Shown in pieces: positions 1 through 272 of a stretch of DNA of 42,722 nt. Both the position numbers and the translations under genes were made by a program. Source of the stretch: Halodesulfurarchaeum sp. (GTDB lineage Archaea; Halobacteriota; Halobacteria; Halobacteriales; Halobacteriaceae); the NCBI GenBank assembly GCA_042216015.1, contig JBDGUI010000043.1, forward strand, positions 1 through 42,722. Reading direction: 5' to 3'. Positions within the stretch are counted from its first letter, which is position 1, and the number at the start of each line of letters is the position of its first letter. The notes under the pieces are model-generated. The model was not told where the DNA came from. It ran no database searches and saw nothing but the letters and a program-made list of their open reading frames with translations.

Positions 1-37
1 AGTGGTTCGCGAAGCGAACCCGAGGGAGTAAAAAGTG

Positions 38-223
38 GAAGTGCGCCGGCCGGGAATTGAACCACCTGAAGACGCTTCCTCGCTCACTGCGTTCGCGAGA
101 CTGCCTCTTCCGTACTTCAATTCCCGGCGGACGACTTCACCGCCGGCAATCGCCTCGCGACACAGCAAGCTGGTCGCTCGGCGGATTACGCGTATGAGAA
201 GTGCGCCGGCCGGGAATTGAACC
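38..223. repeat. 26-bp exact direct repeat of the tRNA-Gly 3' end (38-63 and 198-223) enclosing a structured insert with an inverted copy (116-138)
   Basis: GAAGTGCGCCGGCCGGGAATTGAACC occurs at 38-63 and 198-223. TTCAATTCCCGGC at 116-128 is the exact reverse complement of 49-61. Confidence 0.9.
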
Positions 224-272
224 CGGGCTATGAGCTTGGGAAGCTCATGTCCTACCACTAGACCACCGGCGC
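202..272 (-). tRNA. tRNA-Gly (anticodon CCC)
   Basis: Minus strand reads GCGCCGGTGGTCTAGTGGTAGGACATGAGCTTCCCAAGCTCATAGCCCGGGTTCAATTCCCGGCCGGCGCA. It folds as a cloverleaf with anticodon loop TTCCCAA and T-loop TTCAATT; CCA is not encoded. Confidence 0.97.

Follow-up and report, generated by a model that had tools for sequence, protein, structure and literature searches.

The 160-bp insert behind the tRNA-Gly(CCC) gene of this Halodesulfurarchaeum genome is one unit of a gene-less repeat family that trails tRNA genes across the Halobacteria. In the sense of the tRNA, the layout of the family is a tail segment S, running from the T-loop to the discriminator base, followed by a hairpin A, an inverted arm, a hairpin B and a further copy of S. 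The family is apparently undescribed in print. No description of it was found in the literature searched, which included passages of PMC3119063, PMC3733652, PMC11893778, PMC8371274, PMC4792948 and 10.1101/2024.07.17.603846.

The window, by which we mean the whole 42,722-nucleotide stretch analyzed here, is the left end of contig C14 in an assembly of 1.68 Mb and 51 contigs, and it starts at the contig end. The tRNA-Gly(CCC) gene that hosts the unit lies on the minus strand at 202..272 (Rfam RF00005, 70.7 bits; ARAGORN 201-272), divergent from a NAD synthase gene at 358-1176. All parts of the unit are given on the same minus strand. The upstream direct-repeat copy, S1 (198..223), is the functional tail of the tRNA, from G52 to discriminator base 73 at position 202, plus four trailer nucleotides; tRNA positions follow the general numbering, in which the discriminator base is where a mature archaeal tRNA has its 3' end before CCA addition. 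It is followed by module A (139..197; blastn matches on contigs C3 and C12 and the list of A modules), a hairpin with its core at 148-187, and by the inverted arm (116..138), which begins as a 13-nt perfect complement of tRNA positions 54-66 and continues as an imperfect complement, 1 nt shorter, of the acceptor end and trailer. Module B (64..115) is a long hairpin whose tip is a mini-hairpin motif of the tandem-GA/GCA-triloop kind (83-94). The unit is bordered by S2 (38..63), an exact downstream copy of the tRNA tail and its four trailing nucleotides, which we infer to be the displaced original tRNA tail. The direct repeat of 22 tRNA nucleotides plus four, recognized in a preliminary description of this DNA, is real (26 bp, 100% identity, spacing 160, blastn E 1e-6). 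These two are the only exact copies of the 26-mer in the 1.68-Mb assembly. The same description had 116-128 as an exact reverse complement of 49-61, which it is, and listed stems 134-138/38-42, 68-72/106-110 and 79-83/95-99 together with the hairpin at 148-187, all of which are present in the sequence and in the predicted folds. Its view of the insert as a structured element agrees with fold z-scores of -7.0 (RNA) and -5.5 (DNA), none of 200 shuffles being as good. The unit contains no gene and lies on a single contig in both contig sets compared, X1 (a possible source) and X2 (from the same study). Neither an excised or circular form nor a joint of an empty site was seen in these contigs, in which a circle could not show. 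In an Rfam search of positions 1-2500, the tRNA alone reaches the cut-off. Outside the unit, 1..37 (minus strand) begins a second palindromic tRNA-trailing repeat, which opens with a T5 arm followed by a GC hairpin and is truncated where the contig stops. The T5 tract that had been called terminator-like (A5 at 30-34) does follow the second tail copy only, but it is the left arm of this second repeat, so that any terminator role is putative.

Units of this kind were surveyed behind 172 tRNAs in six genomes, comprising 32 of the 37 ARAGORN tRNAs of this genome and 140 of 150 loci from five relatives, where the loci are the best 30 of 39-44 tRNAs each and 10 were dropped because the T-loop pattern could not orient them. 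A direct tail copy lies within 600 nt downstream of 69 of the 172 tRNAs (upstream control, 0/172) and an inverted arm within 400 nt of 72 (upstream control, 3/172), both being present at 55. More widely, a generic arm-B-S pattern occurs in 287 of 301 Halobacteria genomes (~95%), the other 14 being without a match, and a reversed-pattern control gave 0; among other Halobacteriota it occurs in 7 of 203 genomes, in which the listed matches are not units. The scan of all genome contigs returned at least 120 matches. Among the 80 that were listed, 63 carry haloarchaeal titles, 57 of these having a same-strand tRNA within 500 nt upstream, and the 17 non-haloarchaeal matches were rejected as mostly tRNA genes themselves or chance, three of them (L219, L228 and L277) being tandem tail repeats. 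Viral contigs gave no match to the pattern. Units were also absent behind 30 5S, 5 SRP and 5 RNase P genes, so the T-loop seems to be needed. The presence, number and type of units differ between close relatives at the same tRNA, and at the tRNA-Gly(CCC) site itself some relatives are without a unit while others have a related unit, different units or arrays. The preliminary description had proposed looking for homologous cores behind other tRNAs with arms matched to each host and for sites in relatives without this unit; both are borne out.

The units are built from modules that are shared between tRNAs, joined to arms that match the individual host. The tRNA-Gly unit shares its A-module type with the tRNA-Val and tRNA-Met trailers of this genome (blastn: C3, C12) and with many relatives. 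Its B-module type is met again in this genome, behind tRNA-Arg(CCG), and in G002 and G009, likewise behind tRNAs. B-module types occur behind up to 11 different tRNA tails, and one 28-nt B recurs without change behind different tRNAs of G002, of G033 and of two named Natrialbaceae genomes. When 19 of the 32 units sharing this 28-nt B were aligned, 5 of 16 predicted pairs were changed on both sides; the stems covary, as had been anticipated for a genuine structured element. The match between arm and host was computed on 107 distinct arms and compared with within-genome shuffles, with the proviso that arm positions 54-61 and copy positions 61-72 are partly fixed by the search patterns. It is 0.97 against 0.62 at position 57, 0.77 against 0.45 at 63 and 0.60 against 0.32 at 64, is also above the shuffles at 59 and 62, and is at background level from 66 on. 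Family-wide the arm pairs with its host only over ~55-64 and is then typically 1-4 nt shorter with mismatches; the distal arm pairs after a shift, of 1-4 nt in 32 of the 40 arms with a unique best shift. Of 113 arms, only 31 match their own tRNA better than any other in the pool, and a further 20 match it equally well as another (pools of 23-31). Since the distal part is shifted and the own tRNA is uniquely best for only these 31, the arm is host-adapted rather than a faithful copy. Where units with B modules at least 90% identical sit behind different hosts, the arm follows its own host in 84 of 112 site comparisons, whose pairs are not independent, and the sibling host in 8. The earlier suggestion that the arm was templated from its target needs correction: the arm is matched to its host, but the match is imperfect, shortened and, as described below, coupled to the upstream tail.

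The junctions were profiled on 139 tail copies at 82 loci, anchored on positions 61-72. Identity of the copy to its host is 0.80 against 0.53 in shuffles at position 57 and 0.97 against 0.52 at 73, equals the background at 49-52 and falls to 0.64 at 74; the duplication is therefore host-specific and extends from the T-loop to the discriminator base, ~20 nt. Among 198 tail copies preceded by an arm, 173 are of the host type, 24 are unassigned and 1 is foreign. Upstream and downstream tails of 182 units differ at 21 sites within 56-64. The arm agrees with the upstream tail at 16 of these and with the downstream tail at 3, fits neither at 2, and goes with the upstream tail at all 11 T-loop sites. 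At loci L004 and L270 the T-loop of the working tRNA is seen in 0/49 and 0/17 related tails, and the arm complements this T-loop while the downstream copy does not match it. The coupling of arm and upstream tail fits a unit S-A-arm-B that would bring its own tail, although the 21-site signal could in part reflect a downstream copy that decays free of selection, or palindromes corrected locally.

We propose, with a confidence that stops somewhat short of even, that the 160-bp unit is a non-autonomous mobile element with a tRNA tail of its own that folds as single-stranded DNA and inserts at the T-loop. The unit would be S-A-arm-B, the tail S being part of it, and would exist as a single-stranded circle folded to a dumbbell, with S paired to the arm and the ends capped by A and B. 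The S/arm pairing would make a double-stranded attachment site, at which an enzyme acting in trans would insert the unit into the T-loop of a tRNA gene by a single strand exchange near positions 53-56, followed by replication. The incoming tail would enter the tRNA, the old tail would be pushed downstream, and repeated insertion would build tandem arrays. Exchange at the T-loop motifs that all tRNAs share would let tRNAs swap B modules. For attC and CTXphi it is known that folded single-stranded DNA recombines and that replication resolves the product, as the available text of PMC4792948 sets out. Several observations do not sit easily with this scheme. It does not account for the 34 of 139 tail copies in which the T-loop is altered or interrupted, foreign tails are nearly absent (1/198), so that no jump between different tRNAs is seen in progress, and the arm is a poor copy beyond position 64. 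At 63-65, moreover, its mismatches on the sense strand are A-C rather than G-T in most cases, which counts against the scheme. The idea of a non-autonomous mini-element, already voiced in the preliminary description, has tRNA-linked homologues, covariation and sites without a unit on its side, and its mobility is putative.

Replication fold-back together with palindrome correction would offer a route to the same layout without any free element, which we regard as doubtful. Hairpin A, behind a highly transcribed tRNA, would turn the nascent strand, so that the tail is copied in reverse, the strand turns again at B and the tail is copied forward, giving a direct-inverted-direct triplication; palindrome correction would then keep the arm matched, and modules would spread by short-homology recombination at T-loop motifs. 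This route accounts for the host-matched arms, the single foreign tail, the upstream coupling and the lack of a linked gene, and it is favored by A-like hairpins that stand right after tRNAs without any duplication, as behind tRNA-Gly of G001 and G002, where a double-hairpin module with the mini-hairpin motif directly follows the discriminator base and the tail is not duplicated (L002 and L007, respectively). A copy made by fold-back should nevertheless start out perfect, in conflict with the shift of 1-4 nt in 32 of 40 arms, and the recurrence of an identical 28-nt B behind different tRNAs in different families is left unexplained.

The loops of the hairpins bear on whether the unit acts as DNA or as RNA. 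A count over 110 distinct unit segments gave 90 cGNAg triloops on the tRNA-sense strand against 8 on the antisense strand and 5 in shuffles; GNRA loops number 7 against 8.3 shuffled, GNYA 16 against 6.7 and cUUCGg 0. The bases beneath the triloop form a Watson-Crick pair in 110 of 129 motif matches, and the middle base is free, all four bases occurring. According to the accessible text of PMC13037366, GCGNAGC mini-hairpins are very stable as DNA and far less so as RNA, with a Tm of 76.5 C for the DNA mini-hairpins vs 39 C for r(GCGAAAGC), and DNA mini-hairpins are listed there at single-stranded DNA priming sites and phage N4 promoters. The sense-strand cGNAg loops point to a function that the unit may have as single-stranded DNA on the non-template strand. 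The alternative here is a selected RNA trailer that is co-transcribed with the tRNA, excised at tRNA-like ends and used as a small RNA, a decoy or regulator, as proposed for the RNAs of the E. coli TLRs, and we judge it unlikely. It is consistent with a duplication that ends at the discriminator base, with covarying stems, with a mean RNA fold energy of -42.0 kcal/mol for the sense as opposed to -37.0 kcal/mol for the antisense strand, and with E. coli TLRs of the same layout, three of which are reported, in the portion of PMC8144298 available, as processed RNAs that bind Hfq and CsrA. Against it stand the cGNAg and GNYA loops without any excess of GNRA or UUCG, the variation of units between close relatives at the same tRNA and the 14 of 301 genomes without a match, and it gives no origin for the duplication. 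The preliminary description had also considered that the arm might modulate the folding of the tRNA, for which there is little support: in the predicted RNA of tRNA and unit the arm pairs with the downstream copy with a probability of 0.997 and with the tRNA with 0.002, and the loops are of the DNA type. The acceptor stem, though, has a probability of only ~0.5 in the same predicted RNA.

An enzyme acting in trans was sought among three groups of genes, each of which was rejected as the enzyme of the unit. A small GIY-YIG gene is single-copy, has a tRNA at 1 of 30 loci and any motif at 4 of 30, and is present in the zero-match genomes G027, G032, G040, G047 and G053; it is unlinked and is not flanked by tRNA-trailing repeats. 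IS200 TnpA/RAYT is unlinked both by genome co-occurrence and by locus proximity, PF01797 being present in 11 of 14 unit-rich genomes (absent from 3) as opposed to 14 of 14 zero-match genomes, with a motif near 6 of 30 TnpA loci. Tyrosine integrases (PF00589) match in all 28 genomes checked, with or without units, and their loci gave one loose match in 30, so that no integrase is tied to the units. When the reading frames lying up to 1.5 kb downstream of 256 tRNA rows were clustered, no recurrent mobile-element family emerged; no gene lies between tail copies in these rows, 3 of the rows having gaps of more than 260 nt.

The comparison with integrases is of further use, as the direct repeat of a tRNA 3' part that restores the gene, the signature of tyrosine-integrase att sites, is present here too, and the T stem-loop, which the available text of PMC8371274 gives as a known tRNA integration sub-site, matches the duplicated stretch. 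An ordinary integrase island scar, attL and attR left after loss of the cargo, was already disfavored and appears highly improbable. It predicts neither an inverted host-matched arm nor shared hairpin modules, both of which the unit has while lacking integrase and cargo, and the arm had rightly been singled out beforehand as a feature that ordinary att-scar formation leaves unexplained. Two genuine integrase islands were observed, at tRNA-Arg(TCG) (G002:C1:1166559-1221330) and tRNA-Lys(CTT) (G011:C1:1660982-1687100); they use a shorter, ~13-bp acceptor-only repeat, and pre-existing units have been displaced by them downstream, away from the tRNA. A G002 integrase that adjoins a unit belongs to the island that displaced it. 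A single loose match occurred at 30 integrase loci and none in viral contigs. The unit does not form one end of a larger island with an integrase, a possibility that the preliminary description had allowed for.

The closest known likeness is to the TLRs of E. coli (rttR/RtT of tyrT-tyrV, rrA/rrB/rrF), which, as presented in the text available from PMC8144298, are likewise gene-less, of similar size and arranged in short tandem runs behind tRNA genes, also end in a copy of the 3' end of the upstream gene, and have been seen since 1978 without either an origin or a general function being established for them. The tyrT region of E. coli K-12 contains an imperfect, shortened inverted arm and GNA-type hairpins, as do the haloarchaeal units, and the latter lie directly downstream of a tRNA gene and end in 22 tRNA nucleotides plus four (family profile 57-73), where a TLR ends in the last ~18-19 nt of the upstream gene. 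The differences are that sequence homology to RtT/TLR is absent (no RF00391 match; best local score 26, shuffled maxima 19-29), that the E. coli copy starts at ~A58 and includes CCA whereas the haloarchaeal copy starts at ~53-57 and ends at 73, and that E. coli TLRs also stand behind 5S genes whereas haloarchaeal units do so at 0 of 30 5S loci. We class the haloarchaeal family as an archaeal form of TLR that stands apart from the E. coli family. A more general and quite speculative proposal, which we regard as doubtful, is that Halobacteria carry enzyme-less elements of 100-170 nt that travel as dumbbell-shaped single-stranded circles, supply replacement tRNA 3' ends and hijack a host recombinase for entry at tRNA T-loops, with the E. 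coli TLRs as their bacterial counterpart. If true, these elements would be among the smallest integrative ones known, and a single mechanism would underlie both the TLR puzzle of 1978 and a cross-domain rewriting of tRNA tails. The unit would provide a route for tRNA allele replacement if it is the source of the working tail. A family so rich in module types, whose arms match the host and whose loops are of the DNA type, makes predictions that are testable in a genetically tractable archaeon.

Other systems resemble the units in part. The attC cassettes of integrons and CTXphi, folded single-stranded substrates of tyrosine recombinases, as covered by the available text of PMC4792948, likewise have an imperfect palindrome, an unpaired central stretch, a variable terminal hairpin and tandem accretion, and CTXphi, as the haloarchaeal unit, has no enzyme of its own. 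A one-strand imperfect palindrome with strand-biased loops is predicted for the unit; its target is the T-loop of a tRNA, it has no cargo gene and no recombinase was found for it, and the likeness is one of layout only. The PATEs and SMRs of Haloquadratum and the REP/RAYT system are also short, transposase-free palindromic repeats, present in haloarchaea and thought to be mobile in trans. Compared by description, PATEs and SMRs do not duplicate their target, and the available text of PMC3119063 does not present them as linked to tRNAs, whereas the unit has a ~20-nt duplication, and the cognate HUH transposase of such repeats has no counterpart here, there being no TnpA link. The NTS/SRM repeats of the Ssn nucleases (GIY-YIG cd10448), which act on ssDNA, are hairpin repeats acting as single-stranded DNA, according to the portion of PMC11893778 available. 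The main text of PMC11893778 contains neither 'tRNA' nor 'archaea', and the hairpin repeats that flank the single-domain GIY-YIG gene in that system have no counterpart at the 30 haloarchaeal loci, where 4 have any motif.

Further repeats were observed in the neighborhood of tRNA genes. The second palindromic repeat consists of a T5 arm and an A5 arm around variable GC hairpins and trails tRNA ends; 6 of the 7 matches to its pattern in this genome, at five loci (C3, C9, C31, C36 and C43), lie behind tRNA ends, and its core is inverted behind tRNA-Gly of G001 relative to the window. At L012, L013, L014 and L021, and at 54700-55216 of contig C9 of this genome, further hairpins, many of them oppositely oriented, break up the T-loop or T-stem of a tail copy. 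The genomes G079, G219 and G089 contain 170-360 copies each of the mini-hairpin motif, far more than tRNA trailers could hold, and thus related repeats are spread through intergenic DNA there; G040, G047, G068 and G107, by contrast, have neither the motif nor units. The repeats adjoin tRNAs at many contig ends of this assembly, where they could be mistaken for prophage att sites: contigs C2, C3, C4, C8, C13, C14, C21, C25, C31, C32, C36, C43 and C44 end in or just behind tRNAs or repeats. In the genus members G002 and G011 the 5S rRNA gene (L388 and L389) has an apparent insertion of ~110 nt near its 3' end. Outside the archaea, a REP-like hairpin cluster at ~1560-1810 of L213, from a Syntrophaceae MAG, is a chance pattern match and directly precedes the apparent start of a putative GIY-YIG-type small gene, identified by eye. 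The bacterial loci L219, L228 and L277 (Ignavibacteria and two Clostridia) have tRNA tails repeated in tandem together with an inverted copy of the T-loop.
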